Assembly: GCA_000004695.1 (NCBI GenBank)
Contig: CM000151.3
Location: 3,360,001 to 3,424,000, forward strand
Reading direction: 5' to 3'
DNA from: Dictyostelium discoideum
Lineage: Eukaryota
Length of the DNA stretch: 64,000 nucleotides
Both the position numbers and the translations under genes were made by a program. The notes beneath the pieces are model-generated. The model was not told the DNA's origin, searched no databases, and worked only from the letters and a program-made list of their open reading frames with translations. Below are positions 1-27,273 of the stretch, one piece after another. The stretch's first letter is position 1. Every line of letters begins with the position of its first letter.

Positions 1-514
1 TTCAATTTTTTTAATTACACAAAGTGATACATTTACTCATTTAAGGGACCATTTTTCTTTTTATGTACTTCTTTATCTGAACCTAAAATTTTAATGAATT
101 CCCAATCTTCATTTTTATGTTCTAAAATTTCTGGGTTCATTTTTTTTTTTTTTTTTTTTTTTGTTTTCAAAACAAATTAATTATTGAAATTTCAGATTGA
201 ATATTTGTTTAAACCATCAAATAAAAAATAAAAAAATAAAAAAAAAAAAAAATTAAAAAAATGAAAATAAAAATAAAAAAAAAAAAAATTATAAAAAAAA
301 AAAAAAAAAATCTTTCTTAAATCTCGCCATTATAAATAGAAGTTCAAAATATAATTTAATTGTTTATTTTATATATTTTAGCCATTTTTGTTTTTTTTTA
401 ATTTTATTTTATTTTATTTTTATTTTTTTTTATTTTTTTTTTTTAGTTAGCACAAATTTTTTTTTTTTTTTGTAAATTTCATTGTTCATATAATTCTACA
501 ACAACAGTAAGAAA

Positions 515-3060: not shown

Positions 3061-3342
3061 GATGAAACACCAATTAAAAATTAAATTAAATAAAAAAAAA
3101 TTAAATTAAATAATAAATATTTTTGGTTTTATTACACCGAAATTTTATTTTAACCATAAGTGGTACCAATCATAACGTAGTTGTACCATTAATGGCTTGA
3201 TTGGCAGATTTGTATACTAACTAAAATTTGTTGTTGTTTTATTAGTTTTTTATTATTTTTTAATTTTGGAAAAAAAAAAATTTTGGCGCCAAAATAATAA
3301 AAAAAAAAGAAAAAAAAAAAAATTCATTCATTCATTTTGAAA

Positions 3343-3399
3343 ATGATTGATAATGAATACAACTTTCTAAATAGAAATAATAATAATAATAATAATAAT

Positions 3400-3473
<74 letters not shown>

Positions 3474-3552
3474 CAATAAAATAATTTTCCTTTTTCAATA
3501 TAAAAATAGAAAATTAAGATTTTGCCCAATTATTTCCAAAGATGTAAATACT

Positions 3553-3594
<42 letters not shown>

Positions 3595-5349
3595 TTTTAC
3601 TCACACTCACAAAACTATTAAACAAAGGAAATAAATAATTTTTTTTTGAATATATTTAATGAAATTGAAGAAACGGTACTTGATTTTAATAGTAAAGGGG
3701 GTACCACCAAAGAATTTATTAAATTTTTTAAAGATTTAATTACTTATTTTACAAATAATAATAATAATAATAATCAATACCTTAATGTTTATAATAATAC
3801 ATTCATTAATTGCTTAATTTATAGAATTAAACATTATTTAAGACGTATGTATAATTTTAATAAAATAAAATTCATTTAATCAAATAATATTTTATTAACA
3901 TAGTAAAAAAAAAAAAAAAACAAAAAAAAGAGAATGTTTATTCTTTAGAATTTTTAATTAGTCAAAAATCAACATTATTAAATGACCAAATTAAACAATT
4001 GAATCATAGTTTTTTAATTAATTCAATTTTAGCCCAATTATTTAAAATATCAGTTTATGATAATACTACTTTTATTTTAGATGATGATAATTCAAATATA
4101 TTAGATTCAATAATTGATTCATTTTTATCAATTATCTTAATATCAATTTCAAAATTAGATTCACTTAAAAGGTAAAAAAAAAAAAAAAAAAAAAAAATCA
4201 TTATCAGATTTTTTATCGTGTATTTTATAATATTTTAATTTACTATACTAATCTTAAATAAATTAATATTTTAGAGGAGGTACAATTAATAATAATAATG
4301 TTAGTTATAAAAGTAGAAATAGTAGAAATAAAAATAAATATGATAATGATGATGATTATGAAGAAGTAGAAGAAGAAGAAGAAGAAGAAGATAACGAAGA
4401 TGATGAATATAATCTTCAAAAATTTATATTCAACTTTTTAAAATTATTTAAAAAAGATAATCAAGATAATTTAGCACCAATAACATCAACATTTTGGGAT
4501 TACTTTAATTTATATATAAATAATAAAAATAGGAATAAAAAGTTTGAATTATACAATCAATCAATAATACATTACTTGAATATTACTTTAGAGATAACTA
4601 AAGCTTTATTAAAATTTCAAAAAAATAAAGATCATCAAAACAATAATAATAATAATTATTTAATATCACCAATTTCTAAACTTTTAAATTATCAATTTGA
4701 AAATAAATTTGAAAATTGGAGTTTAATTTCAAAATTAGTTTTAAATTTCATTAAAAAAAATACTCAAATATTAATAAATCTCACCACCGCCACTACTACT
4801 ACAACTACAACTACTACAAATAATAATAATAATAGTAATAATAGTAATAAAAATTATAATAATAATTTGGAATCAATAATAAATCAATTTTCAAAAATAA
4901 TGGTAATTTTATTTAGGTATATAGAGATAACATCACCATTAATTAGTTTAGATACACTATTCGAAGAGATTTATAAATTTATAGTTTTGTTATCATTTTT
5001 ACAAGAATCAGCATCAAATCCTTCTATTAATGATACTGCACCATCTTATAATAAAATTATAGAATTATTTAAACCAGATTATTCATCACCATCATCTTTA
5101 TCTTCCTCTTCTTTTTCAGATCTCTATTTAAAATCAAATATTGAACCAGCATCATTAGATTTAATTAATACGAGTTTATTTTTATGTTTAATAAATTACT
5201 ATAAAAGAAAATTAAATTCTCCTTCTCCTTCTACCACACCACCAAAATCAAATAACAATAATAACAATAATAACAATAACAATAATATAATTCAGAAATT
5301 GATAAATATATATAATAATGAATCACCAAGTATAGTATCAACATTATTA

Positions 5350-5425
<76 letters not shown>

Positions 5426-5658
5426 GTCAAATAACACCAATCGTATATAGAATTATAACATTTAAAAGAGCATTTAACAGTTTTTCATTTGAACAAATTA
5501 AAAATCCATATGAAGAATTATATCAACAATTTAAAAAGAGTAAATTGAATTCATCTTCTGTTCAAGTCATTAAAGAATTGGATACACCAATTTCAACATT
5601 TAAATGTTGGTTTTCAAATTTAATTTCAATTGCAGTTTTATGTATTGATAGTATTGGT

Positions 5659-5736
<78 letters not shown>

Positions 5737-7287
5737 TCAATAGTAACAACAACAACAACTACAACAACAACAACAACAACTACATGTGATCAATTAAAAA
5801 GAATTATAAAATCAATGACATTATTAATTGATTTTTCAAGATCAGAAACTATACTTTTACAAGCTGGTTATTTAATATTAAATGGTATTTTCAGTGTAAT
5901 GAATTTAATGATTCAATATCTATTTTCTTTTGAAGATATTTTAATTTCATTAATTAAAGATATTACAACAATCATTGTAACAAATATTTTTGATAAAATG
6001 TATCCAAATCAAAATTTGAAATCATTATTTTCAAATATTAATAATAATAATAATAATAATAATAAAAATAATTTTAATAGAGAATTATGGTCAAAATTTA
6101 TTTTACATCAATATATTAGGTTTATAAAAAAAGATTCAAAATATTTTAATAATTTCTCATTCAATTTAGAAAGACATTTTAAATCATTTGAAAAATCAGT
6201 TCAAGAGAAATATATCGAATATATTCATTTATTAGTATCAACTTTTGTAAATAATCCAATTAATAATTTATCATTATTAAATAATCAAAATAATAATAAT
6301 AATCAAAATAATAATAGATATAAGATAGTATCAAATAATCAATCATTTTTTAATCCAATAACAGTTCAACTTTATTCAATTTATACAAAACAATCAATTA
6401 ATTTTATAAAGAGTATTGGTGATTGTTTAATTGGGAAATTTAAATTAACAACTTTACCACCAACAACAACAACAACGACAACAACTACAATTGATATTAA
6501 TCAATACTTTTTAAATATTAATATACCACCAACATTTAAAAATAATAATAATTTTCAAATTTCAAATGATTATAATATATTTTTAATATCAATTTATTGT
6601 TTTACAAAGATATTAAAAGATGAAGAATTTAATGAACATTTTTTAAAGAGATATCAAAATCAATTTATAAATATATTTATGTTGGTACTAATTGATCCAA
6701 TTTTATTATTTGAAATTGAATTACATCAAAAGTATATCGATCAATTCCTTTTACTATCAATACCGACTTCAACTTGTTTAGTATTTAAAAATCATTACCT
6801 TTTCAAGGATAATCAATTCATGTTATCAACAAATCTTTCAAAAACTTCTGAAAAAAGAAAATTAATTTTACAATTTTTAAAAAGAATTGAAAATCAATAT
6901 CAAATTGATAAACCATTACCAACTTCAAAAATTAATTTAACAATTACAACAACAACAACTTCACCCCAAAAAACTTTACCACAACAACAAAAACAACAAC
7001 AACAACAACCTTCAAAAATACCAGAATTCGATTGGTTCGATTATCAAATTAGATTTTTAAATTCATTTGAAGAAAGATCAAAAGTTTATGATTTAGAGAA
7101 TAAACATATATCAAACAGTATTTCTAAAATGTCAGTTTTAATGGCCTATGTAAATATGGTAGTTGTAATTTGTCCACATTTTATTATTGATTTAAAAGAG
7201 AGTAATAAAATTAATAATATTAATAATAATAATAATAATAATATAAATAATAATATAAATAGTAATAATACAATAAAAACTATAACA

Positions 7288-7349
<62 letters not shown>

Positions 7350-7808
7350 TCAAAAGAATTTAAATAATAATAATAATATTATTAGTAATAATAGTATTGG
7401 ATCAAAATTTATAGATTTATTTTTAAAAGATTTAGAATATAAGAATGTAAAAGATTTAAATCAATTGATTTATTCATTTGATAAAGTATTTCCAAATTAT
7501 AATTATTGGTTTTCAAAGATTTTCATTCACATATTAAAATCATTTGATCAACAAATGAATCAAAGGAAAAAGAAATCTTTTAAAAATTTATCAATTCATT
7601 TATTAAAATTTGAAAAGTTAAAATCTTTTATATTGAATGATTTATTTGGTTTTTATTTTAGTGGTAATGGTAGTGCTTGTATTCATACACAATTGGTTTT
7701 AATTAAATTTACAAAATATTTATTTAAAAATAATATAAAATATCAAGAAATTGATTTACATAATATAATTCAACATAATTTTATTTTAATTTTTAAATCA
7801 ATTTTTAT

Positions 7809-7891
<83 letters not shown>

Positions 7892-8502
7892 GTTTTATAA
7901 ATTTCAACCAAAAGTCAATATCAAGTAAAATTGAAATTTTTAAATTATTTAATTCTTTCCTTTATTGTTATTCTTCAAGATTGGATTTATTATCATTAAC
8001 AAATGAAAATGAAAATAGTAATAATAATAATAGTGATGAAAATCAAAATGATAATATAAATTTAATTATAATGAAATTAATCAAACATTTCATTAAAATT
8101 ATAATTCAAATAATTTATAATGATCCAATAAATCAAGTACAACAAAATTTAAAGGAATCTCATAATACAAGTATAAGAAATAGTTTAATTAAATTAAAAA
8201 CTTATTTCTTTCAAAGAAATACTAATAATAATAATAATAATATCATTGACTTTGAAAGATATCCAAATGAACAAACAATTATAGATAATAGGGATTCAAA
8301 AGAATTATTAGAGTCAATATTTAAATTTTTAATAACTCTTTATGATTTTGGTAATTTTGGAAGACAATTATTTTTTAAAACCTCTCAAAAAATCTCAAAA
8401 TACCTAATTTCAACACAAGCTAAAAATATTCTTACAAAAAGATATTTTATATTAATTGGTCAAATGCATTTTACCCAAAATATAATACCAATCAATTTTA
8501 TA

Positions 8503-8566
<64 letters not shown>

Positions 8567-8673
8567 GTAATAACCAAAATAATAACCAAAATAATGGTAT
8601 CATTCCCAAAGAAAAAATTGAAATGATGTATTTTAGAAGAGAGAGACTATTAAATAAATTTTTGAAAAAATAA
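3343..8673 (+). CDS. Large Asn/Thr-rich hypothetical protein of about 1680 aa. Proposed model: join(3343..3543,3628..3844,3949..4171,4275..8673).
   Basis: ATG at 3343; the ORF-track starts at 3337, 3646 and 4576 are TTG. The three donors are GTAAAT at 3544, GTATGT at 3845 and GTAAAA at 4172, and the acceptors at 3627, 3948 and 4274 keep the frame. The long ORF 4576-8673 continues upstream in frame to the 4275 acceptor. Several in-frame (AAT)n poly-Asn tracts. Confidence 0.5.
3361..3478. repeat. (AAT)n microsatellite of about 38 units, read in frame as poly-Asn in exon 1 of the 3343 gene
   Basis: Direct reading of the sequence. Confidence 0.9.
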
Positions 8674-8699
8674 AATTTAGCTTCTCCCTAATTAAAACA

Positions 8700-8935
8700 A
8701 AGTATTTTTTGTTTGTTAATTAAAATTTGTTTGTTTGTTGGTTGGTTTGTTTGATTGTTTGATTGTTTGATTGTTTGATTGTTTTTTTGATTGTTTTTTT
8801 GTTAGTTTTTTTGTTTGTTTTTTTGTTTGTTTGTTTTTTTGTTTGTTTGTTTGTTTTTTTGTTTGTTTGTTTGTTTTTTTGTTTGTTTGTTTGTTTTTTT
8901 GTTTGTTTGTTTTTTTGTTTGGAGAATCGATCCCT
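8700..8935. repeat. (GTTT)n/(GTTTGTTT) microsatellite immediately 3' of the 8673 stop and abutting the tRNA-Thr 3' end
   Basis: Direct reading: gtttgtttgtttgttttttt... repeated. Confidence 0.9.
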
Positions 8936-8961
8936 TGATCTATTTAACAGAATTTTTTAAA

Positions 8962-9033
8962 AGGCTCCTATGAGGATCGAACTCATGACCTCTTCCTTAC
9001 TAGGGAAGCGCAATACCACTATGCTAAGGAGCC
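8962..9033 (-). tRNA. tRNA-Thr (anticodon AGT, decodes ACU)
   Basis: Reverse complement GGCTCCTTAGCATAGTGGTATTGCGCTTCCCTAGTAAGGAAGAGGTCATGAGTTCGATCCTCATAGGAGCCT folds as a 72-nt cloverleaf with a 7/7 acceptor stem, a GTTCGATCC T-loop (box B) and a CTAGTAA anticodon loop. A TTTT Pol III terminator lies just downstream (plus 8951-8958). Confidence 0.85.
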
Positions 9034-9169
9034 ATTTTTGAAAAAAAAATTTCAAATAGCAATATTTCACAGATTAATCAGAATTAATTTTTCTCAATAA
9101 TAATTGTTATCCATTTTATTTTATTTATTCAAAAATTTTTGGTCATCCTTCAGACCCCTTGAAAAAGAT

Positions 9170-9850
9170 AATTAATAAATATTATTAAGAACATTGTGAA
9201 ACAATTTATATTGATAATCCAAGAGATGTTTTAGATTCAATTATTTCAGAATATAGAAAAGTAAATGGAAAAGAAGAGTGTTCAGTTATTTCAATTACAA
9301 ATGAATTTTAGCTGCAGTTGAAAATAATAGTGCTACAATGAAATGGTTTACTCTAGAGTAATGTAATCGCAAAGAATTTCAATTAAAACAATTACCAAGT
9401 GAAAATAAATTAATTAATTTATCTCACCGGCCATTGACACCTTTATTTAATGCTTCATTAAAAGAAGTATTAAGATTATACCCACCAGTAGCATTGGTGT
9501 ATCACGTTTAGTAATTGAAGAATTTACAATTGATAATGGTAAATATACATTTCTAAAAGGTGCTCAAATCATTCAATCACTTTATTCAATATTTAGAGAC
9601 GAAAAATACTGGTCATCACCAAATGAATTTATTCCAGAAAGATTCATTTATCAAAATAATTAATCAAATAATTGGTTTCCATATAGTATTGGTGTTAGAA
9701 ATTGTGTTGGTATGGGTTTCTCCCAAGATGAATTATATCTCTTATTAACCAATTTGGTCTTAAATTTCCATATTTTACCACCATTTGAAAATACTAAAAT
9801 TGATGGTACTCCAATTTTTGGTTTTTCATTTAAACCAAAACTTAGATAAT
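9170..9850 (+). pseudogene. Cytochrome P450 pseudogene, 3' fragment running from the I-helix to the heme-binding loop and C-terminus, interrupted by in-frame stops and frameshifts
   Basis: Shifted frames encode I-helix-like AAVENNSATMKWFTLE, the K-helix/PERF region KEVLRLYPPVALVYHV.., EFIPERF and the heme loop PYSIGVRNCVGMGFSQDELYL, then ..FKPKLR*. Several TAA/TAG stops interrupt it. The N-terminal half of a P450 is absent. Confidence 0.6.
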
Positions 9851-10119
9851 AAAAAATTTGATTTTTCCTTTTAGAAAATTTTTTACTATTATTTCTTATT
9901 ATGTGTTTTGCTAGAATGGCCAAAATCCAACATATCTAAGCCACCGTTTTTTATTTATTATTGGATTGTGTATTTGGTGACGAACAATCTCCAGTTTTTT
10001 TTTAATTTTTTTAAATAATGTCCATCAATTTTATCTAGATTAAGTTTTTATTTAATAAATGTTTAAAGGATTAAAAAGGAGTCGAACATATGATCCTATT
10101 AATGAAGTTGAAAAATCAT

Positions 10120-10202
10120 TGCAAGAGGCGAGATTCGAACTCGCGAACCGAATGGATGAGATCTTAAGTCACACGGATTTAACCAGACTTTCCTACCCTT
10201 GC
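10120..10202 (-). tRNA. tRNA-Leu (anticodon TAA, decodes UUA), long variable arm, 83 nt
   Basis: Reverse complement GCAAGGGTAGGAAAGTCTGGTTAAATCCGTGTGACTTAAGATCTCATCCATTCGGTTCGCGAGTTCGAATCTCGCCTCTTGCA has the acceptor stem (one G-U pair), D-arm, a CTTAAGA anticodon loop, a long extra arm and a GTTCGAATC T-loop. The anticodon stem has one mismatch. A T-run lies downstream on the minus strand. Confidence 0.8.
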
Positions 10203-10234
10203 TTTGTATGTAAGTTGTAATAAAGCTTGTTAGC

Positions 10235-10248
10235 TTTATAAATATATA
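10235..10248. repeat. 5' target-site duplication TTTATAAATATATA of the TRE5-A insertion (3' copy at 17252-17265)
   Basis: Identical 14-mer directly abutting both element ends. Confidence 0.7.
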
Positions 10249-10250
10249 TG

Positions 10251-11870
10251 GATTATTTCATTTTTCATATAAAAAAGACTTAAAAAACAAATAAATAAAT
10301 AAATAAACTATCTTAAAAAGCCATCTTTTTACTTTATTGTAATTTATTATTTGTTTCGTTTTGAGAATTTTGCGTAGCAAAATTTTCAAAAAAAAGCAAA
10401 AAATAATCAGATCGAAAAAAAACAAACAACAACAACAATCTCTTTTTTTGATTATTTCATTTTTCATATAAAAAAGACTTAAAAAACAAATAAATAAATA
10501 AATAAACTATCTTAAAAAGCCATCTTTTTACTTTATTGTAATTTATTATTTGTTTCGTTTTGAGAATTTTGCGTAGCAAAATTTTCAAAAAAAAGCAAAA
10601 AATAATCAGATCGAAAAAAAACAAACAACAACAACAATCTCTTTTTTTGATTATTTCATTTTTCATATAAAAAAGACTTAAAAAACAAATAAATAAATAA
10701 ATAAACTATCTTAAAAAGCCATCTTTTTACTTTATTGTAATTTATTATTTGTTTCGTTTTGAGAATTTTGCGTAGCAAAATTTTCAAAAAAAAGCAAAAA
10801 ATAATCAGATCGAAAAAAAACAAACAACAACAACAATCTCTTTTTTTGATTATTTCATTTTTCATATAAAAAAGACTTAAAAAACAAATAAATAAATAAA
10901 TAAACTATCTTAAAAAGCCATCTTTTTACTTTATTGTAATTTATTATTTGTTTCGTTTTGAGAATTTTGCGTAGCAAAATTTTCAAAAAAAAGCAAAAAA
11001 TAATCAGATCGAAAAAAAACAAACAACAACAACAATCTCTTTTTTTGATTATTTCATTTTTCATATAAAAAAGACTTAAAAAACAAATAAATAAATAAAT
11101 AAACTATCTTAAAAAGCCATCTTTTTACTTTATTGTAATTTATTATTTGTTTCGTTTTGAGAATTTTGCGTAGCAAAATTTTCAAAAAAAAGCAAAAAAT
11201 AATCAGATCGAAAAAAAACAAACAACAACAACAATCTCTTTTTTTGATTATTTCATTTTTCATATAAAAAAGACTTAAAAAACAAATAAATAAATAAATA
11301 AACTATCTTAAAAAGCCATCTTTTTACTTTATTGTAATTTATTATTTGTTTCGTTTTGAGAATTTTGCGTAGCAAAATTTTCAAAAAAAAGCAAAAAATA
11401 ATCAGATCGAAAAAAAACAAACAACAACAACAATCTCTTTTTTTGATTATTTCATTTTTCAAATAAGAAAGACTTAAAAAACAAATAAATAAATAAATAA
11501 AATATCTTAAAAAGCCATCTTTTTGCTTTATTGTAATTTATTATTTGTTTCGTTTTGAGAATTTTGCGTAGCAAAATTTTCAAAAAAAAGCAAAAAATAA
11601 TCAGATCGAAAAAAAACAAACAACAACAACAATCTCTTTTTTTGATTATTTCATTTTTCATATAAAAAAGACTTAAAAAACAAATAAATAAATAAATAAA
11701 CTATCTTAAAAAGCCATCTTTTTACTTTATTGTAATTTATTATTTGTTTCGTTTTGAGAATTTTGCGTAGCAAAATTTTCAAAAAAAAGCAAAAAATAAT
11801 CAGATCGAAAAAAAACAAACAACAACAACAATCTCTTTTTTTGATTATTTCATTTTTCATATAAAAAAGA

Positions 11871-11877
<7 letters not shown>
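10251..11877 (+). repeat. Tandem array of 8 complete plus one partial 199-bp TRE5-A A-modules. Copy 7 carries about 5 substitutions; the others are identical.
   Basis: The same 199-bp unit (gattatttcatttttcatataaaaaagactt...caatctctttttttt) recurs at a 199-bp period. The six-frame track shows an identical 69-aa minus-strand ORF 8 times at 199-bp spacing, with the copy at 11452-11661 differing by a few residues. Confidence 0.9.
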
Positions 11878-11916
<39 letters not shown>

Positions 11917-11992
11917 GGAACCCAAGTTAATCAGAAAATTTCCAGATTTTTAACTTTTTAAAGAAAAATATAAAAGATAGAAAGAAAATAAA

Positions 11993-13327
11993 ATGAAAAT
12001 CACAAACAACACCACAAATATTAAGCAACACAAATGCCTACAAAAAATAAGCGAAATTGTGGATAAAACTCAATTAAAAAAAAAACAATTCAAATACGTC
12101 ATAAACATCAATCACGAACCAGACGATAAAATAAAAAAAGATTTAGAAAAAAGTTTGGACAAAAAAGATGTTTTAATCAAAAGTAATAATACATTCAAAA
12201 TTCTCACAGACAGTATTAGTACAGTAATCTATTTTGTAAATATGTTCGATGCAGAATTAAAAGGACAATTTATAACCACTCTAAGACCAAAAAATATGTA
12301 TACGGATTTCGATTGGTATAAATCACTCACAGAAATAGAATGGGTAATAGAAAATGAAGGATGTAAACTAATTAAATCTGAAATTAAAGGCGAAACTCTA
12401 ATTATCAAAACAGTGAAAAGAGTCGTAGAAGAATATGACACTATCATTGAACTAGACAATCTAACATTAATTGGTCACTCCAACAAAGGATGGAGAGATC
12501 AAACCTCATTACCAGAAAATCAAGAAGAAAACAAAAATAAAAAACAATCAGATGAACAACAACCACAATCTACATCAGAACAAATACCAAAACAAGGAAA
12601 AAGAACAATCATTATCCCACCAATCACCTCCTCATCTAATGATAAAACATTTATGGCCCTAGATGATACAGCTCAAAAGGTAATAGATGCATCACTAGAA
12701 AACGTAGATGAACTAACAAGAATAGAGAATGAGATCAATACCCAATCGATAAACAATCAAGAAATTAAAACAAAATCAGAAAAACCTATTGAACCACCAT
12801 CTCCATACAATACACCAATAAAACAACACGGCGAAACAAAGAGACTAACAACGGAAGAAAAACTTAGAGAGGTAAATGATATCTTCGACTTCACCAGCCC
12901 AAACACTGATGCAATAAGAAAAATAGAATTCCCACTTTCAATCCCTTCAAATCAATGGTTCTTCTCCTCTCCAATAAAACATATCATGAGTTTCAGCCCA
13001 ACCTATGGTACACCATCGAAAATTATCGATTCACCAAGTAAATTGTTAAACACACCAAAAAACAAACAACAAGACAAAACAAACAGGACCAACAAAACAC
13101 CAGTCAAACCAAAATTGGGTGAATATGGACAAAAAAGCATAAAAACAAAAATGGATGAAGATATAGACAACTTCAACAAGGAAATTCTAAAACAAATCAG
13201 TAAATCAAAAAACCCCACAAACACACAAGACCAACAACACAACGAACAAAGTAAAGATCAGTTAGAAGACAAAATAAACCAGAAACTTCAAAAGGTAGAT
13301 AAAAATCTACCCCAAATAAAACTATAA
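11993..13327 (+). CDS. TRE5-A ORF1 (444 aa, basic, Lys/Gln-rich), beginning inside the B-module
   Basis: Uninterrupted ORF. Its first 81 codons are duplicated at 16896-17141. Confidence 0.8.
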   Translation: MKITNNTTNIKQHKCLQKISEIVDKTQLKKKQFKYVININHEPDDKIKKDLEKSLDKKDVLIKSNNTFKILTDSISTVIYFVNMFDAELKGQFITTLRPKNMYTDFDWYKSLTEIEWVIENEGCKLIKSEIKGETLIIKTVKRVVEEYDTIIELDNLTLIGHSNKGWRDQTSLPENQEENKNKKQSDEQQPQSTSEQIPKQGKRTIIIPPITSSSNDKTFMALDDTAQKVIDASLENVDELTRIENEINTQSINNQEIKTKSEKPIEPPSPYNTPIKQHGETKRLTTEEKLREVNDIFDFTSPNTDAIRKIEFPLSIPSNQWFFSSPIKHIMSFSPTYGTPSKIIDSPSKLLNTPKNKQQDKTNRTNKTPVKPKLGEYGQKSIKTKMDEDIDNFNKEILKQISKSKNPTNTQDQQHNEQSKDQLEDKINQKLQKVDKNLPQIKL

Positions 13328-16300
13328 AGAAAAACACAATAAGAATAGGTGTTTGGAACGTCCAAGGATCCAACACCATCCAATCTGCCAGCATAATAAA
13401 CACCGTATTAGACAACAACAAGCTGGACGCAGCACTTCTAACTGAAACAAATATAAAAACAAATAAAATTTACTCAATAAATCAACAATATAAAAACAAA
13501 ATAACACACCACGCACCAATTGATAAAACAGGACAAGGGGTGTCACAAATCATCATCAACACCCAAATAAAAACAACAACAAAAACAATAAACGAAAGAA
13601 TTATATCTTCCGAATGGATGATTGCAAAAACACAGATCAAATGCACAACCATTTATGCCCCAGCAAAGTCAAACGAAAGACATGAATGGTATAAGGAAAA
13701 TCTCACAGAAGAAATACTACACAGCGATATTATAACTGGAGACTTCAATGTAGACTGTTCAGTGGATAATAACCTTAACAAATATATTAAAACAATCTTC
13801 GACGAATTCGAATTTACAGAAATTAAGAATGGAATCACATTTCCAAGAAACAAATCAACCATCGATAGGGTCTTTGTCTCAAAGAAGATACTCCATCTAA
13901 ACCCAATAGTTACTACTAAGGAAATCAAATTAAAATCTGATCACAACATGGTAATCATTGAATTAAAAATACCAGAATACGAGCAACAAAAGAAAGGAGA
14001 AAGACTATGGAGACAAAACCTAGAAACTCTCAAAATGAATTCAACCAGCCTCAAAATTAATAAAACAATTAAATACTACAATAAAAAATTCGAAGAGAAC
14101 ACCAGCAAATGGTACAAATTAAACATTTGCGAACAATGGTTGAAACTAAAAGATGAAATAAAGAAACTGTCAATTAATATAGAAATTAGAGAAAGCAATA
14201 AAACCAAAAACAAACTAAAAGAACTCGCAGAAAAACTCGAAACAGCCAAAGATTCAAGAGCAATCTTCCTTAAAGAAGAGATCAACAATATTCTAAAGGA
14301 ACAAGTAAGAATAAAACAAGCAAACCAAACCAACACCCACATCAACAACAAAGAAACACCATCAAAATACTTAACCAGAAGGTTAAAAGTCCAAAGAAAG
14401 ACAAATGAAATCCCTCAAATTCTAGATCCAAGCAACAATTGTTTGGTAACAAAACACGAGGATATCCTCGAAGTAGCAAGAAGATATTACGAGAACCTGT
14501 ACCAGAAGAGAGAATGCAACGAAGACACTCACCACGAACTCCTAAAAACATTCAATAAAAGGATTGATCAAAAGATATTGGACGAAATTAATCAACCAAT
14601 AGAAGGATATGAAATCAGACTAGGCATTGAAAAAATACAAGAAGGAAAAGCACCTGGTAAAGATGGACTCCTTCCAACATTTTACAAAAACCACATTAAT
14701 GAAATTCTACCAATAATATCAAAACTATACAATCACTTCTGGAACACAACAATCCCAAAGGACTTCAAACAAGGGATATTGATTACTATATATAAAAACA
14801 AAGGAGACCCAAACAACCTGGATAATTATAGACCAATAACACTTCTAAATGTCGATTACAAAATCTATTCGAAAATAATCAACAATAGGATCCTGAAGTT
14901 CTTAAACAAAATAATCTCACCATTCCAAACTGGATTCGTACCAAGAAGACTACTGCACGATAACATCATCACCTTAAACTCAACAATAGAAATAATAAAA
15001 CGAGAGATTAACACAAAAGAGGATATGGAACCAATCATAACATTTTATGATTTTGAAAAAGCATTCGATTCAATCTCACATAACGCCATTCTACGTACTC
15101 TTGCACATCTAAAACTACCACTCAAAATGGTCCTCACAATAATGAACTTACTCAATGAATCAGAAACATCAGTGTACATCAATAACTCATTATCTAAAAG
15201 CTTTACATCAAAAAGAGGAACCAAACAAGGTGATCCTATCTCTCCCACTATCTTCGCATTAGTGGTTGAATGCATGGCAACTACTATAATAAATGACCGC
15301 TGCATCAATGGTGTAACCAAAGAAACCATTAAAATACTACAGTTCGCCGATGATACAGCAACAATAGCATACAACTTTATGGACCATTTCCTCATGAATG
15401 AATGGATCAAGAAGTTTTGCCAAGCAACCAGCGCAAAAATAAACCAAACCAAATGCTCGTGTATCACTTTCAAATGGAACACCAGAACGCTATACACCGT
15501 CATAAAATCAAACGAAAGGTACCTCGGCTTTGACTTCAACAATAAGGGTATCAAATCCAAAATCAATACAATCTCAGACAACATCAGAGCTAAACTAGTA
15601 ACATGGAACTCAACTTCATCAACCTATATGGGCAGACTCATAATGGCAAAAACATATGCACTATCTCAGTTAACGTTCCACACTTACATCAACACCACAC
15701 CACAACACAATAGTATTGAAAATAACATCGTAAAATTCGTTTTCAACACAAAATCTAAAAACTCTCTTTCACTACAAAGAAGACAAAACAACTATATCAA
15801 TGGTGGCCTAAACTTATGGAACCTGAAGACAAGAGAACTAGCACAGAAAGCATGGTTATTCGAAAGATACCTCCACCAAAGAGTAAGTAACACTCCTAGT
15901 TCATATATAAAACTGTGGGAAGAGGAACTCAAAAACAACAACAACAACAAAACAACAACAAAACAAAATCAACTACAACTACACTGGCAATGCAAGCAAG
16001 CATGGACCCAATTAAAAACTCCACAAAATAAACAAACACACTACGAACACCTCCCAAAATTAAAAAAAATATACGAAGATATGATGACAACTCAATCTCC
16101 TGAACACAACAAATTCATACCAACTCCTGGCCAAAAAGAAATAATGACCAAAATTAATAGCAAACACCTTCCATTTAAAGAAATCAAAAAAATAATAAAC
16201 ATGAAAGGTAGAGATCTATTATGGAGATACACACTGAAAGCACTACCAAAAATATACAACATGCCATGCCAACAGTGTGGGGAAGATGAGACCTCAGAAC

Positions 16301-16761
16301 ATATATTCTTCAACTGCAAAGCCCACATCAAAAACACACAAGAAATCTTCAACTACACCCTAACTAAGTGTGGACACACCACTCACACCTGGAATGTGAA
16401 GATTTTAAACCATCTACAAATTGCACTAGTAGCCAATTTAATAGCTATTATATTCGATAAAATCTGGCACAAAAGAAATAAACTCATTCACGATGAAAAA
16501 GAAATAATAATTCACAGACAACAAGTCATACGTGAACTAATTAAAACACAAAGAGCTGCATGGGACAGGACACAAGCGGTTATAAACAAAACATTAAGAA
16601 TCAAATCAAAGCAACGGCCAGAAGAACAAAATAAATTAGACTCACTAATCTCGCTAAAGCTATTACAATTTAGCAGACAATGGAACTCACCTCTTCACGC
16701 AATAGAACTTCCTAAACATCTCAAAAAATACAATAATTCACTCAGTACTTTCTATAAATAA
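13303..16761 (+). CDS. TRE5-A ORF2: apurinic-type endonuclease + reverse transcriptase + C-terminal Cys-rich (CCHC-like) domain. The frame is open from 13303, in the -1 frame relative to ORF1 with a 25-nt overlap; the first ATG is at 13540.
   Basis: N-terminal IRIGVWNVQGSN...TETNIK (APE/L1-EN-like) is encoded upstream of the first Met. RT motifs are FYDFEKAFD, KRGTKQGDPISPTIFALV and LQFADDTA. The C-terminal CQQCGEDETSEHIFFNCKAH is CCHC-like. Confidence 0.85.
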   Translation, partial: KSTPNKTIKKNTIRIGVWNVQGSNTIQSASIINTVLDNNKLDAALLTETNIKTNKIYSINQQYKNKITHHAPIDKTGQGVSQIIINTQIKTTTKTINERIISSEWMIAKTQIKCTTIYAPAKSNERHEWYKENLTEEILHSDIITGDFNVDCSVDNNLNKYIKTIFDEFEFTEIKNGITFPRNKSTIDRVFVSKKILHLNPIVTTKEIKLKSDHNMVIIELKIPEYEQQKKGERLWRQNLETLKMNSTSLKINKTIKYYNKKFEENTSKWYKLNICEQWLKLKDEIKKLSINIEIRESNKTKNKLKELAEKLETAKDSRAIFLKEEINNILKEQVRIKQANQTNTHINNKETPSKYLTRRLKVQRKTNEIPQILDPSNNCLVTKHEDILEVARRYYENLYQKRECNEDTHHELLKTFNKRIDQKILDEINQPIEGYEIRLGIEKIQEGKAPGKDGLLPTFYKNHINEILPIISKLYNHFWNTTIPKDFKQGILITIYKNKGDPNNLDNYRPITLLNVDYKIYSKIINNRILKFLNKIISPFQTGFVPRRLLHDNIITLNSTIEIIKREINTKEDMEPIITFYDFEKAFDSISHNAILRTLAHLKLPLKMVLTIMNLLNESETSVYINNSLSKSFTSKRGTKQGDPISPTIFALVVECMATTIINDRCINGVTKETIKILQFADDTATIAYNFMDHFLMNEWIKKFCQATSAKINQTKCSCITFKWNTRTLYTVIKSNERYLGFDFNNKGIKSKINTISDNIRAKLVTWNSTSSTYMGRLIMAKTYALSQLTFHTYINTTPQHNSIENNIVKFVFNTKSKNSLSLQRRQNNYINGGLNLWNLKTRELAQKAWLFERYLHQRVSNTPSSYIKLWEEELKNNNNNKTTTKQNQLQLHWQCKQAWTQLKTPQNKQTHYEHLPKLKKIYEDMMTTQSPEHNKFIPTPGQKEIMTKINSKHLPFKEIKKIINMKGRDLLWRYTLKALPKIYNMPCQQCGEDETSEHIFFNCKAHIKNTQEIFNYTLTKCGHTTHTWNVKILNHLQIALVANLIAIIFDKIWHKRNKLIHDEKEIIIHRQQVIRELIKTQRAAWDRTQAVINKTLRIKSKQRPEEQNKLDSLISLKLLQFSRQWNSPLHAIELPKHLKKYNNSLSTFYK

Positions 16762-16814
<53 letters not shown>

Positions 16815-16819
<5 letters not shown>

Positions 16820-17110
16820 GGAACCCAAGTTAATCAGAAAATTTCCAGATTTTTAACTTTTTAAAGAAAAATATAAAAAATAGAAAGAAAATAAAATGAA
16901 AATCACAAACAACACCACAAATATTAAGCAACACAAATGCCTACAAAAAATAAGCGAAATTGTGGATAAAACTCAATTAAAAAAAAAACAATTCAAATAC
17001 GTCATAAACATCAATCACGAACCAGACGATAAAATAAAAAAAGATTTAGAAAAAAGTTGGAACAAAAAAGATGTTTTAATCAAAAGTAATAATACAATTC
17101 AAAATTCGAA
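16815..17110 (+). repeat. 3' duplicate of the TRE5-A B-module plus the first 81 ORF1 codons, about 98% identical to 11912-12205, flanked by internal oligo(A) tracts (16763-16814 and 17108-17128)
   Basis: Direct alignment of cctgggaacccaagttaatcagaaaatttccag...aaaagtaataatac at both locations. Divergence begins near 17100. Confidence 0.85.
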
Positions 17111-17740
17111 ACAAAAAAAAAAAAAAAAAAAAGTAAACTAACCCCTCTTTTAGAGACCCTGTAAAAAAAAAAAAAAAAAATAAAATAAAATGAGATCTAG
17201 CATCTCAAGGAGAAGCAAATAATAATTGCGTTATCCAATTCAAAAAAAAAATTTATAAATATATAATTAATAATTATATAATTGAATAATACTTTGTTAT
17301 CTTTATTTAATATTAGTTTATATTTATAATATTCAATATTGTTTATAAAATTATTCTTTAGTATTTATATTATTTATAATGAGTTGACAGTATTATTATT
17401 ATTATTATTATATTATTTAAATGTGTGTCAACTATAATTAGTAATGTAATATGCATATTTAATATCTATTAATTTTATAGAGTAACTTTATTACAAAGTT
17501 ATTATTTTTAACAAGTTAAAGCAATTTTTTCTTTTTTTTTTAGAAATTATTTAATTTTTTTTTTATAAATTTTATTTTTTTATTTGCTTTCGATGAAATT
17601 TTTATTTTAATAGCAAATAATTTGAGAACTGATACATTTTTATTTTTGTTGTACTTTAAAAAAATAAAAAGAAAACAATTATATTTCTAAATTAATTTTT
17701 ACAATTTAATAAATAATTTTTTTTTTTTATTTTTAATATT

Positions 17741-19158
17741 TTAACTTGGATCTTTTAAAGAAGAATTAATTAGATCACTTTTGCTATTACTAAAACTTGT
17801 TGAAGATTTATTTGAATTTTCAATTTCAATTGAAATTTCCAAAGTATTAAAATTTGAATTTGTATTACCACTATATCCTAAATCAAATGTTGAACTCTTT
17901 TTACCTTTAGAATTACTATTTGAATTTTCCATTTCACTAGAACTATCATTATGAGTTTTAATTGATTTAAATAATACATAAACTTTCCATTTACCATCTG
18001 ATAATACTAACATTACAACTAACTAATAATAATAATATAAAAAAATAATTTTATTAATAATTAATAATATTTTTTTATAATTGGTGTAATTAATTTTATT
18101 TTTTAAAATATTAAAAATATTTACCAATTGAAAAAATTCTATTACACCAACAATAAATAATTTTAAATATTGTCTTGGTGTTTCATAAGTGTCTGTATAA
18201 TACATATTGAAAATAAGTTCTTGTATGATAATTGTTACTGCTACAAAAATAACTGTTGATAATAAAATCTTGGTTTTTAAAATCATAATATCAAAATGAC
18301 TAAATGGTGTTGACTTTTTATGTTTTTTTAAATGTCTTAATAAATAATAACCATTAAACTTTTTAAAAAAAAAATATTAAATAATTAAAATTAATACCAT
18401 TAAAAAAATAATAATAATAACTAAAATAATAATAATAATAATAAAATTAATTACCGAAACTATTGATGCATAAATTAAAAGTAAAATTAAAAATCCAACA
18501 GACTCTGCTGTTTCAATATTTTTACGCAAGGTTATACTTGAAACTGTAAATTGATAAATTATAATAACAAGGGCAAAAATAAATGTTGAATAATTAATTG
18601 GTTTTGCTCGATTTAGTCTAACTTCTTCTGAAATAAAAAATTTATACATAATAAGTAACCCTTTTTTTAAAAAATAAAAATAAAAATAAAAAATTAATAA
18701 TTATATTAAAACATAAAGAAAAAAATTAAAAACTATATGATTCTACTTACAATAATGTTGAATAAAAACCCAAGCAAGGAAAATTGCTGCAGTACCTAAT
18801 GAAAAGAAAAAAAAATTTGGTGTTCCAATACCTAAAAATAATTTGTTTAGAATTATTATTGATTGAATTTTTAAAATAAAAAAATAAAAATAAAAATAAA
18901 AAATTTACCTAATTGGTGGTTATCATAGAAAAATGCTGTTTGAATTGTTCTTAAAATACAAAATAAAGATTGAAAAAAAAATACAAAAAATCTTGTTGTA
19001 GTTTTTGATTGTTTTTTAATCATTTTAAGAATTTCTAAAAATGCTTGATAAAAACATATAATAAAAAAATATGTATATGCTATTAATCTTAAACCCATAA
19101 ATGAATATGTTAATTTATCAAATGAATCTGAACCTGTAAAATATTCTGTTGATTCCAT
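17741..19158 (-). CDS. Multi-exon gene for a hydrophobic multipass membrane protein of unknown family. ATG at 19158, first donor about 18912, with further exons around 18763-18838, 18480-18650, 18023-18290 and 17741-18010.
   Basis: A string of minus-strand ORFs (18871-19158, 18377-18649, 18023-18286, 17741-18013) encode TM-helix-like segments and are separated by AT-rich GT..AG intervals. Exact splice sites are not fully resolved. Confidence 0.45.
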
Positions 19159-19276
19159 TTTTAGAAATTATTTTTTTTTTTTTTTAAACAATTTTTTTTT
19201 TTTTTTTTTTTTATTTTTTTTTTTTTTAATTATTTTTGTACAAGATAATTTCTATTTTTATTTTATATGATTGATT

Positions 19277-19308
<32 letters not shown>

Positions 19309-19795
19309 AAAAAAAAAAAATTATTAAAATAAAAAATCAAATTTTAAAAATAATAAACAAAATAAAAAAAATTGTGCACATGGTTAAACCGTTTTGAGTG
19401 TAAAAAATAAAAAAATAAAAAAAAATTAATTTTAAATAAAAGAAAATAAAATATAGGTTGATTGATGAGATTGCAACGAATAGTTTCACGGCACAATCAA
19501 AAAACAAAGTGTTTTAAATAAAAACCACAAAATTTTCAATCATCAAAAAAATATCTTTTTTTTTTATTTTATTTTAGTCATATGAAAATTATAGGCTTTA
19601 TCAAAAATAAAAATAATATTTTTAAAATAAAAAAAAAAAAAGATATTTTTTTATTTTTTTTCATTTTTTTTTATTTTTTTCATTTTTTAAAAAAAATAAA
19701 TTTTAGACAAAAAAAAAAAAAAATAAAAAAAAAAAAAAATTATAAAATTTTTTCAAAAACAATTTAATTAAAAAAAAAAAAAAAAAAAATTTCAA

Positions 19796-23938
<4,143 letters not shown>

Positions 23939-24121
23939 ATAATAAATAATAAATAATAAATAATAAATAATAATAAATAATAAACAATAATAATAATAAA
24001 ATTAATAATAATAACAATAATAAAATTAATAAAATTAATAAAATAAATATAAATTATTTGTTTTTAATTATTTCTTTTATTTTTTTTTTTTTTTTTAAAT
24101 AATTGTAATATTTTTTAATTT

Positions 24122-25750
24122 TTAATAACAGAACCTTTTAACTGGGATCAAGGTACAGAATATATTTTTAAATGAATCAGCAATTGTTACACGATGATAT
24201 TTTTGATGTGCAATGTAAATATTTTGTAAATGAATATCATCATGGTATTCTGATCCTAAGTTATTTAAAATTGGTGATTTTGATGTTGATTTATATTTTT
24301 TTGATTGTTGTTGTTGTTCAGTTTCTTGTTGTTGTAGTTGTTCGTTCTCATCAATACAACGATTTTCACCATTTTGTAAAATTGTAGAAGTAGTTGTTGT
24401 TGGGGTGGTTGGTTGATAATTTTCAATATTATGAATAAAATTATAATTCTTTAATAAAACTTTGTGTTGTTGTTTTAACTGTTCACTTGTTATACTATCT
24501 GTACTTTCATCATTATTGTTACTACTACCACCACCACTTGTTGAACTACTACGAACTATTGTTGGAAAATGAAAATTAACTTGTTGTTGATTATTTGGAT
24601 TATTATTTGAATTTAATACATTTGGACTATAAAGTGATGAATGACAAACAAAAGAACTAAACTTTTCATCTTGATTTTTTAATTTACATGATGAAAATAT
24701 TGATGCTGAATCACTATTAAAATATTGATCAAAATCACTTTCAAATAATTTTTCATTCAAATCTTTTCCTTTATTTTTGATATTAATATTGTTATTATCA
24801 TTATTATCATTTTTATTATTATTTTTATTTTTATTATTATTACTTTGAATTGAATTTACATTATAATGTTGATGAAAGTTAAGTTGTGCTGCTGAAGAGC
24901 TACCTCCCGTTGAAGATATATAAATTGATGGTGAAGAAGAAGATGGATAAAAACTATAATAAGAAACTGATGGCGAATTTAGAAATCCTGGATTATAACC
25001 AGCAGTGGTTGTATCTCCATTAATACCAACTAGTGGATTATAATTCATAAACATGCCACCTCCACTAACCTCATTTGAAAATGATATTATACCACCATTA
25101 AAATTATTAAATAATAATGAATTTACTGTTGCACCACCTGTTCCACTACCACCACTACCACTACCAACACCATTATTATTGTTATTATTATTTATATGGT
25201 TATTTAAAATTGTGTCGACACCATAATAAATTTTTGAATTTTGTTGTGGTAGAGTTGAAGGTAACATTAACATACTTAGTGTACCCATAAAAATTAATAA
25301 TGCAAAATAACTTGAACGAGAGAATTCAGTATTTGAATAGATTGGTGGTAAATTCTTTAAAACTCCTTTTCTTTGTAATTTCATTACACAATAATGTAAA
25401 TGATGTGGTGATAAATTATAAACTCTATGACAGATTGAACAATACCATTTATTGCATTTACCAATCCATTCACAAAGACATTTAACATGTACATGTCTTT
25501 GAGTACCTTTACAATCACATGGTCTAACTAATCTATTACCAATATTCTTACGTTGTCTCTTTGATTGTGAAATTGGTGTTAATTCTACATATCCGCCATT
25601 ACTATTTCGATTTAATTTCTCTTTAAATTCTAATTCTTCTATTTCTATATCTTTTGATTTTATTGAATTTTCATTTAAATTAAATTCTTTTTTATCATAA
25701 ATTGGATCTTCAACTTCAATTTCTTCTAAACAAAATCTACATTCAATTAA

Positions 25751-25753
<3 letters not shown>
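24122..25753 (-). CDS. RING-CH (RINGv, C4HC3) MARCH-family E3 ubiquitin-ligase-like membrane protein, 543 aa
   Basis: N-terminal CRFC...RPCDCKGTQRHVHVKCLCEWI...CSICH matches the RING-CH spacing and is followed by a hydrophobic segment FALLIFMGTLSMLMLP. The tail is long, low-complexity and Ser/Asn-rich. Confidence 0.7.
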
Positions 25754-25783
<30 letters not shown>

Positions 25784-25807
25784 CTAATATTATTTTTATT
25801 ATTTTAT

Positions 25808-25975
<168 letters not shown>

Positions 25976-27179
25976 ATTTAATTTTTAATAAGGTTTTAAT
26001 AACGAGGAAGGATTTCCAATAAATAATAAAAAAAATTAAATGTGAAAAATATGGAAATCCTTAAAAAAAAAAAAATTGTTTAATGTGTTTTTTATTTTTT
26101 TTTTTAATTTTTTTTTACTAAATTATTTTAAAAAGGTAAATTATTGTTAGAAAAATTTAAAGTGAATATTTTTTAAAGTGAAATATAATAATAATAAAAA
26201 AAATAAAAATAAAATAAAATAAAAATATGTGTTTATTACTATTGGAATAGTTAAAAAAATGAAATAAAAATAAAAAATTAAAAAAAAAAAAATAAAAATA
26301 AAAAAAATAAAAAGAGTAGAAAGTTATAAAAATCAATGTTTGAATTTGGGGTGTATTGAGAAATTTTTTAAAAAATCTAATTATTTTCGTTTTTGGGGGT
26401 GGGTTTATTTGGTGTGTTTATGAAATGAAAGTTAATTAAACCACAAACACTATACCAGTATTAAAAAATAATTATTATGGTAAATGTGGGGTTCCTAAGA
26501 TCGAATGTTTGTTTAAATATGAGAAATTCCAAATTTACCAAATAAATAAATTACCGCACATAACAATATTAACAATAATCATAATTAACCACCTGGTATT
26601 AAAAAAAATAAAAAATTAAAAAATTAAAAAAATTAAAAAATAAAAAAAAATTTAAAAAAATAATGCATATTAATTACCTATAGAGCTAAATGGGTGTTAA
26701 ATTTAAATAAAAATTAATAGATAACAGTTGAAAAATATTTATCTCTTTTTTTTTCTTTTTTTTAATTTTTTTTTTTTGAATTAATTTTTTGTTTAATAAA
26801 AAAAAAAAAAAAAAACAAAATAAAAAAAAAAAATTGGTGGTTTCTTCCTTTTAAAAAATTGTAACCTATATAATTTAATTTAATTAATTTTTTTTTTTTT
26901 TTTTTTGAAAGAAGTAAATTATTCATAAGAACGAGAAACCAATCGTTTTTAAATTTTTATTTTAATAATATTTATTTTTTTTATTTTTTTTATTTTTTTT
27001 TTTTTTTATTTTTTTTATTATTTTTTTTATTTTTTTATTATTTTTATCAAATAATGTGATATATACTAAAATAATTATTTTGTTTTTATTATTGTTTTTT
27101 TTTTAAAAATACATCTTTATTTATTTTTTTATTTATTTTTTATTTATTTATGTTATTTATTTAGTTTTAAATAATTTAA

Positions 27180-27268
<89 letters not shown>

Positions 27269-27273
<5 letters not shown>

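Follow-up and report, generated by a model that had tools for sequence, protein, structure and literature searches.

How does a retrotransposon come to carry eight near-identical copies of a single module at its 5' end? The question is raised by a stretch of 64,000 nucleotides of Dictyostelium discoideum AX4 chromosome 2 (referred to here as the window), and whether such arrays lengthen by slippage during reverse transcription or by unequal crossing-over is a legitimate matter to ask of it; the window locus itself does not decide the point. As a finding the locus matters little. TRE5-A is well established together with its targeting and its modular build, copies with several A-modules have been recognised before, and the reference annotation already includes this one. 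The value of the locus lies in a clean pair of filled and empty sites, one in each of two laboratory strains that are close relatives, by which ongoing TRE5-A activity is confirmed, and in a small survey of the family, where A-module number ranges from 0 to 36 and 5' ends are phase-locked after a cap-like G. How LINEs replenish their tandem promoters is an unsolved problem, and TRE5-A is a simple system in which to approach it.

A full-length non-LTR retrotransposon of 7003 bp, TRE5-A.1 (formerly DRE), occupies positions 10249-17251 of the window; its parts follow one another as A(8.2)-B-ORF1-ORF2-B-C-oligo(A). A first-pass annotation had described a complete TRE5-A with both ORFs open, and the full set of modules and the two open frames bear this out. 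The copy is very likely a genuine, full-length TRE5-A.1 that inserted recently and is apparently still able to retrotranspose; its array is most economically explained as copied from the RNA of a multi-module donor. The features of the locus are as follows.

10120..10202, minus strand: tRNA-Leu(UAA) gene, the Pol III target (ARAGORN; Rfam RF00005 tRNA, 49.1 bits); its 5' end (10202) faces the element
10235..10248, plus strand: 5' copy of the target-site duplication, TTTATAAATATATA, 14 bp, at -33 to -46 relative to the tRNA
10249..10250, plus strand: two bases, TG, absent from the empty site and from the A-module unit
10251..11842, plus strand: eight complete 199-bp A-modules, the putative plus-strand promoter module (TRF and unit-by-unit comparison)
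11445..11643, plus strand: A-module copy 7, variant unit 'e', with exactly four substitutions (T18A, A23G, C58A, A81G)
11843..11912, plus strand: A/B junction, constant in all arrays examined: 37 nt from the start of the A unit (11843-11879), merging with an A tract of 39 nt (11874-11912)
11913..12202, plus strand: 5' B-module, ~290 bp, holding the ORF1 start codon at 11993 (module definition from PMC3159450)
11993..13327, plus strand: ORF1, 444 aa, intact
13303..16761, plus strand: ORF2 frame of 1152 codons; it is shifted by -1 from the ORF1 frame and overlaps ORF1 by 25 nt (13303-13327)
16756..16815, plus strand: A tract of 60 nt, leading from the ORF2 stop codon to the 3' B-module
16816..17106, plus strand: 3' B-module, which shares 98.6% identity with its 5' counterpart
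17106..17251, plus strand: C-module of ~136 nt (17106-17241) and a 10-nt oligo(A) tail (17242-17251)
17252..17265, plus strand: 3' copy of the target-site duplication, 14 bp, an exact match to the 5' copy

TRE5-A copies in a second D. discoideum assembly (GCA_054883475.1) share 98-100% identity with the window element in its modules, A and B on the 5' side as well as B and C, followed by oligo(A), on the 3' side. [quoted passage not shown] Computational folding of the 3' part of the window C-module (17188-17251) predicted two hairpins (MFE -11.3 kcal/mol, z = -3.4 relative to shuffled sequences), and the 3' terminal stem-loops of the published TRE5-A model are thus predicted to be kept in this copy.

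The geometry of the insertion is that of the family. With the tRNA gene on the minus and the element on the plus strand, the two are divergent and the 5' end of the element faces the tRNA; the distance from the tRNA 5' end (10202) to the junction (10248/10249) is 46 bp, and 48 bp to the first templated base. In the first-pass annotation this head-to-head spacing of 46-48 bp had been called canonical. It agrees with the published integration distance of 47+/-3 bp upstream of tRNA genes (PMC5391098) and with 14 other elements that we checked, all of which combine a minus-strand tRNA with a plus-strand element at 45-51 bp. The TG at 10249-10250 represents non-templated 5' junction bases, the G of which may derive from the cap; an extra, cap-derived G at 5' junctions has been described for endogenous TRE5-A (PMC3159450).

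Whether the two flanking 14-mers are a genuine duplication could be settled by comparison with an unoccupied site. Exact matches of at least 14 nt are shared by ~8% of random AT-rich 60-mer pairs drawn from the window, so that the 14-mer alone is weak evidence, and a coincidental AT-rich match with element boundaries elsewhere was weighed as a rival reading. The empty-site allele, a check that the first-pass annotation had proposed, was found in GCA_054883475.1. A locus of that assembly (L010) is collinear with the window on both sides and has no element: its positions 1-7470 align to window 2770-10248, and 7457-24143 to window 17252-33977. The 14-nt overlap of the two alignments (7457-7470) is a single copy of the 14-mer exactly at the junction, with window position 10248 joined precisely to 17252. 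The reading as a chance match is rejected by this allele despite the appreciable background rate, and we give it practically no credence; the 14-bp target-site duplication is real, as had been claimed, and the insertion is recent and polymorphic. Over 24 kb, the flanks of the two alleles differ by 2 isolated SNPs, by homopolymer lengths and by one low-complexity cluster, and such near-identity indicates that the strains are very close and that the insertion is young. From this near-identity and a preprint (bioRxiv 10.1101/2025.08.01.668227), the second assembly is probably that of strain AX2-214. The element very likely entered by target-primed reverse transcription, which gives TRE5-A.1 target-site duplications of variable length, at a tRNA-Leu(UAA) gene occupied by Pol III/TFIIIB; nicks in the bottom strand at -32/-33 and in the top strand at -46/-47 gave rise to the 14-bp duplication, and the two extra bases were gained at the 5' junction.

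The array itself was resolved by TRF as a 199-bp repeat (10251-11899, 8.3 copies, 99% matches). Unit-by-unit comparison upheld the earlier description of eight near-identical units with substitutions only in copy 7, and their assignment as A-modules also stood; copies 1-6 and 8 are identical to one another and to the TRE5-A.1-type unit of the second assembly. The window belongs to the Sanger-era AX4 reference, in which the exact number of identical 199-bp units is not verifiable from sequence alone. The four changes of unit 'e' fall within 64 nt of one unit, in an element that differs overall from its relatives at ~1 site per 450 nt; the chance that four independent, uniformly placed changes all fall in the same unit of eight is ~(1/8)^3. 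Uniform mutation does not account for them because of this clustering. None of the four changes was present in ~120 other surveyed units. An origin of the copy 7 substitutions in another TRE5-A lineage, by gene conversion or template switching, was considered and set aside, as none of the loci compared provided a match.

The arrays of the family were surveyed in 18 TRE5-A elements sampled from GCA_054883475.1, a long-read (Nanopore plus Illumina) assembly. The A-module counts were 0, 1 (seven elements), 2, 2, 3, 3, 7, 8, 8, 10, 21 and 36. Three interpretations in the first-pass annotation did not survive this comparison. Arrays of this length had been thought unusual; at least seven modules were found in a third of the elements (6/18), with 21 and 36 in the largest, and eight modules are common and within the normal family range of 0 to 36. 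The identity of the units had been taken to argue for very recent amplification or homogenisation, but all 67 TRE5-A.1-type units examined in nine other elements are 100% identical to the window unit. Because the unit is identical family-wide, identity within the array is uninformative on local amplification; from the compared sequences, it reflects the youth of the whole TRE5-A family and not events in the window array. The partial ninth copy, which had been counted as part of the amplification, is a fixed A/B junction: all 17 arrays examined end with the same 37-nt partial unit, followed by poly(A) and then B. The arrays are free of internal junction scars, and homopolymer-length changes are their only variants. 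Units of 200 nt (types c and d) were inspected as possible marks of template jumps and rejected as such, since they have no extra G at the presumed transcription start and differ only in A-run length, possibly through long-read errors. Reportedly, the tRNA-proximal end of DRE was described as early as 1992 as having a single A module or several, together with one B module; no statement on multiple or tandem A-modules was found in the open-access literature.

The 5' ends of the elements suggest why module number varies. Six of 14 elements begin exactly at unit position 159, each after a non-templated G, and 13 of 14 begin within unit positions 147-180; elements ~90% identical in two other isolates begin at the same position 159. 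Transcription thus appears to start within each module near unit position 159. The phase-locked ends and the non-templated G fit a start in the module, which would act as a Pol II promoter for the plus-strand RNA. The window element starts at unit position 1 and not at the usual position 159, which would reflect either a template RNA from a minor start site or a slight 5' truncation of the cDNA. Since each module appears to carry its own start, progeny would inherit as many modules as the donor has, or fewer.

From where, then, did the window copy obtain its eight modules? On the most economical reading, it took the array over from a multi-module donor, through copying of the donor RNA, and did not build it at the window site. 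A donor with the exact window ORF1 and ORF2 or with unit 'e' was sought in the indexed assemblies, among which the AX4 reference DNA is evidently not included, and none was found; neither window ORF is encoded in any of these assemblies, and the cluster representative (P0001) is likewise unmatched. This lack of a matching donor in the indexed assemblies counts against inheritance of the eight-module array. Growth in place after insertion is an alternative. Either unequal sister-chromatid exchange or slippage in replication, acting on the run of identical units upstream of copy 7, would have brought a shorter array (e.g. a-a-e-a) to eight units; the presence of just one 'e' unit, close to the 3' end of the array, and the lack of junction scars are compatible with this. 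Arrays of 21 and 36 units exceed anything easily inherited, and the locus of the 36-unit array (L016-L018) is the only one where B-ORF1-ORF2 is also repeated in tandem, as three identical copies of 4.89 kb, which suggests locus-specific recombination. However, the insertion is absent from a strain with only those 2 SNPs in its flanks and is so young that little time was left for growth, and the frequency of donors with 7-10 or more modules (6/18) makes expansion in place unnecessary. We therefore regard in-place growth as unlikely, while giving it some weight.

A gain of units during the very reverse transcription that created the window copy is considered improbable. The end of the cDNA would have re-annealed on a unit further downstream in the RNA, or on a second RNA, and units would have been recopied. 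Template switching is established for reverse transcriptases of the TRE5-A class, such as those of L1 and R2; when guided by homology it would leave no scars, as observed, and a switch from the 5' B-module to a 3' B-module could also yield the B-ORF1-ORF2 tandem of L016-L018. On the other hand, end-to-end template jumps would leave non-templated or cap-derived bases, which the internal unit boundaries lack, and retroviral reverse transcriptases lose direct repeats far more often than they gain them. The count of eight, and possibly the odd copy 7, might also be a product of assembly. Sanger reads of 500-700 nt are unable to count seven identical 199-bp units, the window is part of the AX4 reference, and the changes of unit 'e', clustered as they are and confined to this one unit, could have been introduced by a low-quality read. 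Yet the independent Nanopore plus Illumina assembly has arrays of 7, 8, 8 and 10 units, so an array of eight is entirely plausible, and both junctions are exact in an element that is otherwise intact; an assembly artifact accordingly carries a low probability. Copying from donor RNA remains our preferred reading for this copy.

Across the family, a scarless, homology-driven process would have to add modules back, and the candidates are unequal sister-chromatid exchange or replication slippage, template switching by the reverse transcriptase, or both. We tentatively propose, as a possibility we hold to be somewhat doubtful, that A-module arrays are fast-evolving promoter minisatellites, in which capped transcripts starting in each module erode the number at every retrotransposition cycle and scarless homology-driven regrowth restores it on laboratory time scales. 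The clustered changes of unit 'e' could then be the footprint of exchange with a diverged module. If true, the proposal would explain both why arrays can reach 36 units and why 4.89-kb repeats were co-amplified at one locus. The upkeep of monomeric LINE promoters (e.g. those of mouse L1) could then be studied in the AX2/AX4 pair, a haploid and tractable system in which strain history dates the insertions.

All features tested match TRE5-A.1 (DRE), including the AB-ORF1/ORF2-BC order, targeting, fixed orientation, duplication, extra 5' bases, C-module hairpin and oligo(A) (PMC3159450; PMC5391098; PMC5911963). Canonical TRE5-A.1 is ~5.65 kb long with one A-module, whereas the window copy has eight; nothing essential differs. 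The non-autonomous TRE5-A.2 has the same A/B junction, tRNA targeting and multi-module arrays, with 8 (L001), 8 (L007) and 21 (L006) units. Its A unit (type 'b') differs from that of the window by C62T and two compensating 1-nt homopolymer changes, and TRE5-A.2 is a derivative from which ORF2 and some of the B/C region have been lost; the window element is the autonomous form. Functionally, the closest analogy is with the 5' UTR monomers of mouse L1 (Tf, Gf and A subfamilies), tandem promoter units of ~200 bp in variable number. Mouse L1 elements have 3-4 monomers on average and >10 at a few loci, a first unit that is usually truncated, and a fixed 'tether' to ORF1 (PMC9022269); TRE5-A has a 199-bp unit, 0-36 units, a 5' partial unit in most elements and a constant A/B junction. 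The two have no sequence relationship and differ in host and targeting, and in Dictyostelium arrays reach 36 units among only 18 elements, with 5' ends tightly phase-locked and a cap-like extra G. The Pol III complex on tRNA genes also serves as a safe landing site for yeast Ty3 and Ty1 and for Dictyostelium TRE3 and DGLT-A (PMC5911963; PMC5006619). The Ty elements differ in being LTR elements that use an integrase, and TRE3 in inserting downstream of tRNA genes; none of the four has an A-module array.

ORF1 encodes a TRE5-A-specific protein, of a kind not homologous to ORF1 proteins elsewhere, identical to the AX4 proteins EAL70570 and EAL70891 among others (cluster member P0010) and 97-100% identical to the rest of its cluster. 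No Pfam domain or family was matched, as reported for TRE5-A ORF1. The frame of ORF2 agrees with the published -1 frameshift from ORF1 to ORF2 in TRE5-A (PMC5911963); the annotated product begins at the ATG at 13618 and is 1047 aa long, identical to EAL70571 and EAL70890. ORF2 is an L1-type endonuclease-reverse transcriptase-zinc finger polyprotein, with a Pfam match to RVT_1 (3e-33) and similarity to human L1 ORF2p over residues 184-843 (1.7e-46). Exo_endo_phos (residues 18-195) and zf-RVT (residues 951-1007) were matched only below Pfam thresholds, and the endonuclease and zinc-finger calls are thus weak on their own. The window protein carries H280 and G330, where the seven compared copies of the second assembly have N and E. 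An antisense ORF of 179 aa (15045-15584), nested within ORF2, was taken to be a chance ORF.

The features that the first-pass annotation had described (array, tRNA gene and flanking 14-mer) were all found in the sequence of the window, which has a G+C content of 21.9%. Tandem Repeats Finder placed the 199-bp array at 10251-11899 (8.3 copies, 99% matches). When the array was cut unit by unit, A-module copies 1-6 and 8 were identical and copy 7 (11445-11643) carried four substitutions (T18A, A23G, C58A, A81G); the ninth copy is 37 nt long and is followed by a 39-nt A tract. Exact copies of the 14-mer TTTATAAATATATA lie at 10235-10248 and 17252-17265. The remaining features are as follows.

tRNA genes and parts of the TRE5-A.1 element in the window
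8962-9033, minus strand: tRNA-Thr(AGU), Rfam-confirmed
10120-10202, minus strand: tRNA-Leu(UAA), Rfam-confirmed
11913-12202: 5' B-module, 290 bp, with the ORF1 ATG inside it at 11993
11993-13327: ORF1, 444 aa
13303-16761: ORF2 frame, open from 13303
16756-16815: A tract, 60 nt
16816-17106: 3' B-module, 98.6% identical to the 5' B-module
17106-17241: C-module
17242-17251: oligo(A), 10 nt

The ORF2 frame is -1 relative to ORF1 and overlaps it by 25 nt, an arrangement likewise published for TRE5-A (PMC5911963). ORF2 matches RVT_1 at 3e-33 and human L1 ORF2p at 1.7e-46; its endonuclease and zinc-finger matches were under the Pfam thresholds. Stem-loops were predicted at the 3' end of the C-module (z = -3.4), in agreement with the published requirement of a C-module 3' stem-loop for retrotransposition, and the AB-ORF1/ORF2-BC layout is that of TRE5-A.1 (PMC3159450). 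By every testable criterion the element is a member of TRE5-A.1. Long A tracts precede both B-modules (11874-11912, 39 nt; 16756-16815, 60 nt), and the A-module block and ORF2 each end in the manner of a retroposed RNA with its poly(A) tail. This hints, as a speculation, that the modular structure of TRE5-A arose by read-through of tandem insertions.

The element is already annotated in the reference genome, since AX4 proteins EAL70570 and EAL70891, among others, have exactly the sequence of ORF1, and EAL70571 and EAL70890 that of the 1047-aa ORF2 product. The neighboring 543-aa RING-CH protein (24122-25753) also has paired gene identifiers, DDB_G0273077/DDB_G0273767. Together with the consecutive accessions, such pairs (EAL70570/EAL70891 for ORF1) place the window within the large AX4-specific duplication of chromosome 2, so this TRE5-A copy is present twice in the reference. 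The finding is real, and both the element and the property concerned were known already; its remaining value lies in the pair of filled and empty alleles and in the family-wide survey of arrays.

The 14-mer by itself is unconvincing as a target-site duplication, because exact matches of at least 14 nt occurred in ~8% of random AT-rich 60-mer pairs drawn from the window. The empty-site allele (locus L010) was found through the 1380-aa product of window 19796-23938, which is encoded once in the long-read assembly GCA_054883475.1. Positions 1-7470 of this locus align to window 2770-10248 and positions 7457-24143 to window 17252-33977; the 14-nt overlap of the two alignments is one TTTATAAATATATA beside the same tRNA-Leu gene. 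This puts the insertion at exactly 10249-17251 (7003 bp) and shows the proposed duplication to be genuine.

Only two isolated SNPs (29879, 30621) separate the window from the empty-site locus in 24 kb of flanks. Nearly all of the differences are in homopolymer length, with the window longer by 8-13 nt, as in the T runs at 25753, 28437, 30690, and 33369. A cluster within ~105 nt of low-complexity intergenic sequence (26837-26941) holds 11 of 13 mismatches and two 1-nt indels. Sequencing errors, long-read or Sanger, may account for part of these differences. Such near-identical flanks indicate that the source of GCA_054883475.1 is a very close relative, most likely AX2-214, whose genome is described in bioRxiv 10.1101/2025.08.01.668227. 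Among laboratory strains derived from NC4, this young insertion is polymorphic. ORF1 and ORF2 of the window are encoded in no indexed assembly (the index includes GCA_054883475.1 and evidently lacks AX4), which is compatible with a subfamily of the AX4 lineage.

The junction lies 46 bp from the tRNA 5' end and the first templated base 48 bp from it; the two extra bases at the 5' junction are TG. In 14 other elements, all divergently oriented, the distance was 45-51 bp; the published value for TRE5-A is 47±3 bp (PMC5391098).

The first-pass annotation had called arrays of this length unusual. A lookup of two ORF1 protein variants (P0007 and P0009) in the long-read assembly gave 19 loci and 18 distinct elements, picked by protein sequence and not by array length, and seven or more A-modules were present in 6 of the 18. 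Long arrays are accordingly common in this family.

Complete A-modules per element in the long-read assembly
0 modules: 1 element
1 module: 7 elements
2 modules: 2 elements
3 modules: 2 elements
7 modules: 1 element
8 modules: 2 elements
10 modules: 1 element
21 modules: 1 element
36 modules: 1 element

The original description of the element (as DRE, 1992) reportedly gave its tRNA-proximal end as one or several A-modules and then one B-module. Among the non-autonomous TRE5-A.2 elements, one beside tRNA-Ala(AGC) (L006, 5628-9905) has 21 A-modules and two others (L001, L007) have 8 each. TRE5-A-like elements were also seen in two further assemblies labeled D. discoideum (L021 7994-13779 in GCA_054859385.1; L022 8055-14209 in GCA_054859355.1); their modules are only ~90% identical, with one A-module, an unchanged layout and a 5' start at unit position 159. 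The promoter monomer arrays of mouse L1 are functionally similar to the A-module array, without a sequence relationship (PMC9022269).

Recent local amplification had been deduced from the identity of the copies. This does not hold, since nine other elements together contain 67 TRE5-A.1-type units, every one of them 100% identical to the window unit, and identity across elements reflects how young the family as a whole is. The TRE5-A.2-type unit is equally uniform; one substitution and two homopolymer changes that compensate each other set it apart from the window unit. Nor is the partial ninth copy a trace of amplification: the 37-nt partial unit, followed by poly(A) and B, closes 17 of 17 arrays and is a constant A/B junction. 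The four substitutions of copy 7 were found in none of ~120 other units. Comparison of the element body with its relatives gave differences at 10-13 of 5339 positions, so four changes in 1.6 kb are no excess. Uniform mutation would not be expected to cluster them within 64 nt of one unit. They may stem from exchange with a diverged module, from a donor outside the sample by inheritance, or from an error in the Sanger assembly.

Unit position 159 (AGATCG...) is the exact start of 6 of 14 tRNA-adjacent elements, whatever their module number, and each of these starts is preceded by a G that belongs to neither unit nor target; a cap-derived extra G has been reported at TRE5-A 5' junctions (PMC3159450). 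Seven other elements start at 147, 156, 158, 164, 164, 165, and 180, and the window element is an outlier in which TG is followed by unit position 1. Because the start phase does not depend on module number, these junction sequences suggest that each A-module has a capped transcript start near position 159. Progeny would then carry as many modules as the donor or fewer, and any gain would need another process. For a one-module canonical element, A sequence of 42 + 199 + 37 nt, the A tract and a body of 5339 bp would add up to ~5.65 kb, matching the published TRE5-A length (PMC3159450).

As to how units are added, no array had scars at unit boundaries, the sole length variants being A-run changes. 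This argues against end-to-end template jumps, and is compatible both with growth in place by unequal exchange or slippage and with homology-guided template switching during reverse transcription. Locus-specific recombination is mildly favored by one TRE5-A.1 element upstream of tRNA-Pro(UGG) (L016-L018, one locus at ~3.02-3.05 Mb of CM142511.1 in GCA_054883475.1; L018 2639-9907 and beyond), in which 36 A-modules are followed by three 4.89-kb B-ORF1-ORF2 repeats, identical except for A-run length, and B-C; the longest array and the only internal tandem among the 18 elements thus share a locus. For the window array itself, the simplest reading, although not proven, is inheritance, given the very recent date of the insertion and how common multi-module donors are: the array would have been copied from a multi-module donor RNA.

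Some tRNA sites have been used repeatedly. At L019 (8300-8415), a 100-nt remnant consisting of C-module only, with its own duplication ATCGCAATTTTAA, separates tRNA-Val from an older element with 7 modules; at L002 (9380-12075), a TRE5-A.2 element flanked by TTAATCACCAAT has landed in front of a TRE5-A.1. In neither strain is tRNA-Thr(AGU) of the window associated with a retroelement; a long (TTTG)n/T-rich microsatellite (8800-8920) lies directly downstream of this gene. Between the tRNA-Thr and tRNA-Leu genes, 9102-9849 holds a C-terminal cytochrome P450 fragment that includes the heme-binding region and is interrupted by stop codons and frameshifts. Its stitched frames match PF00067 at 3e-29, and it is a pseudogene remnant.
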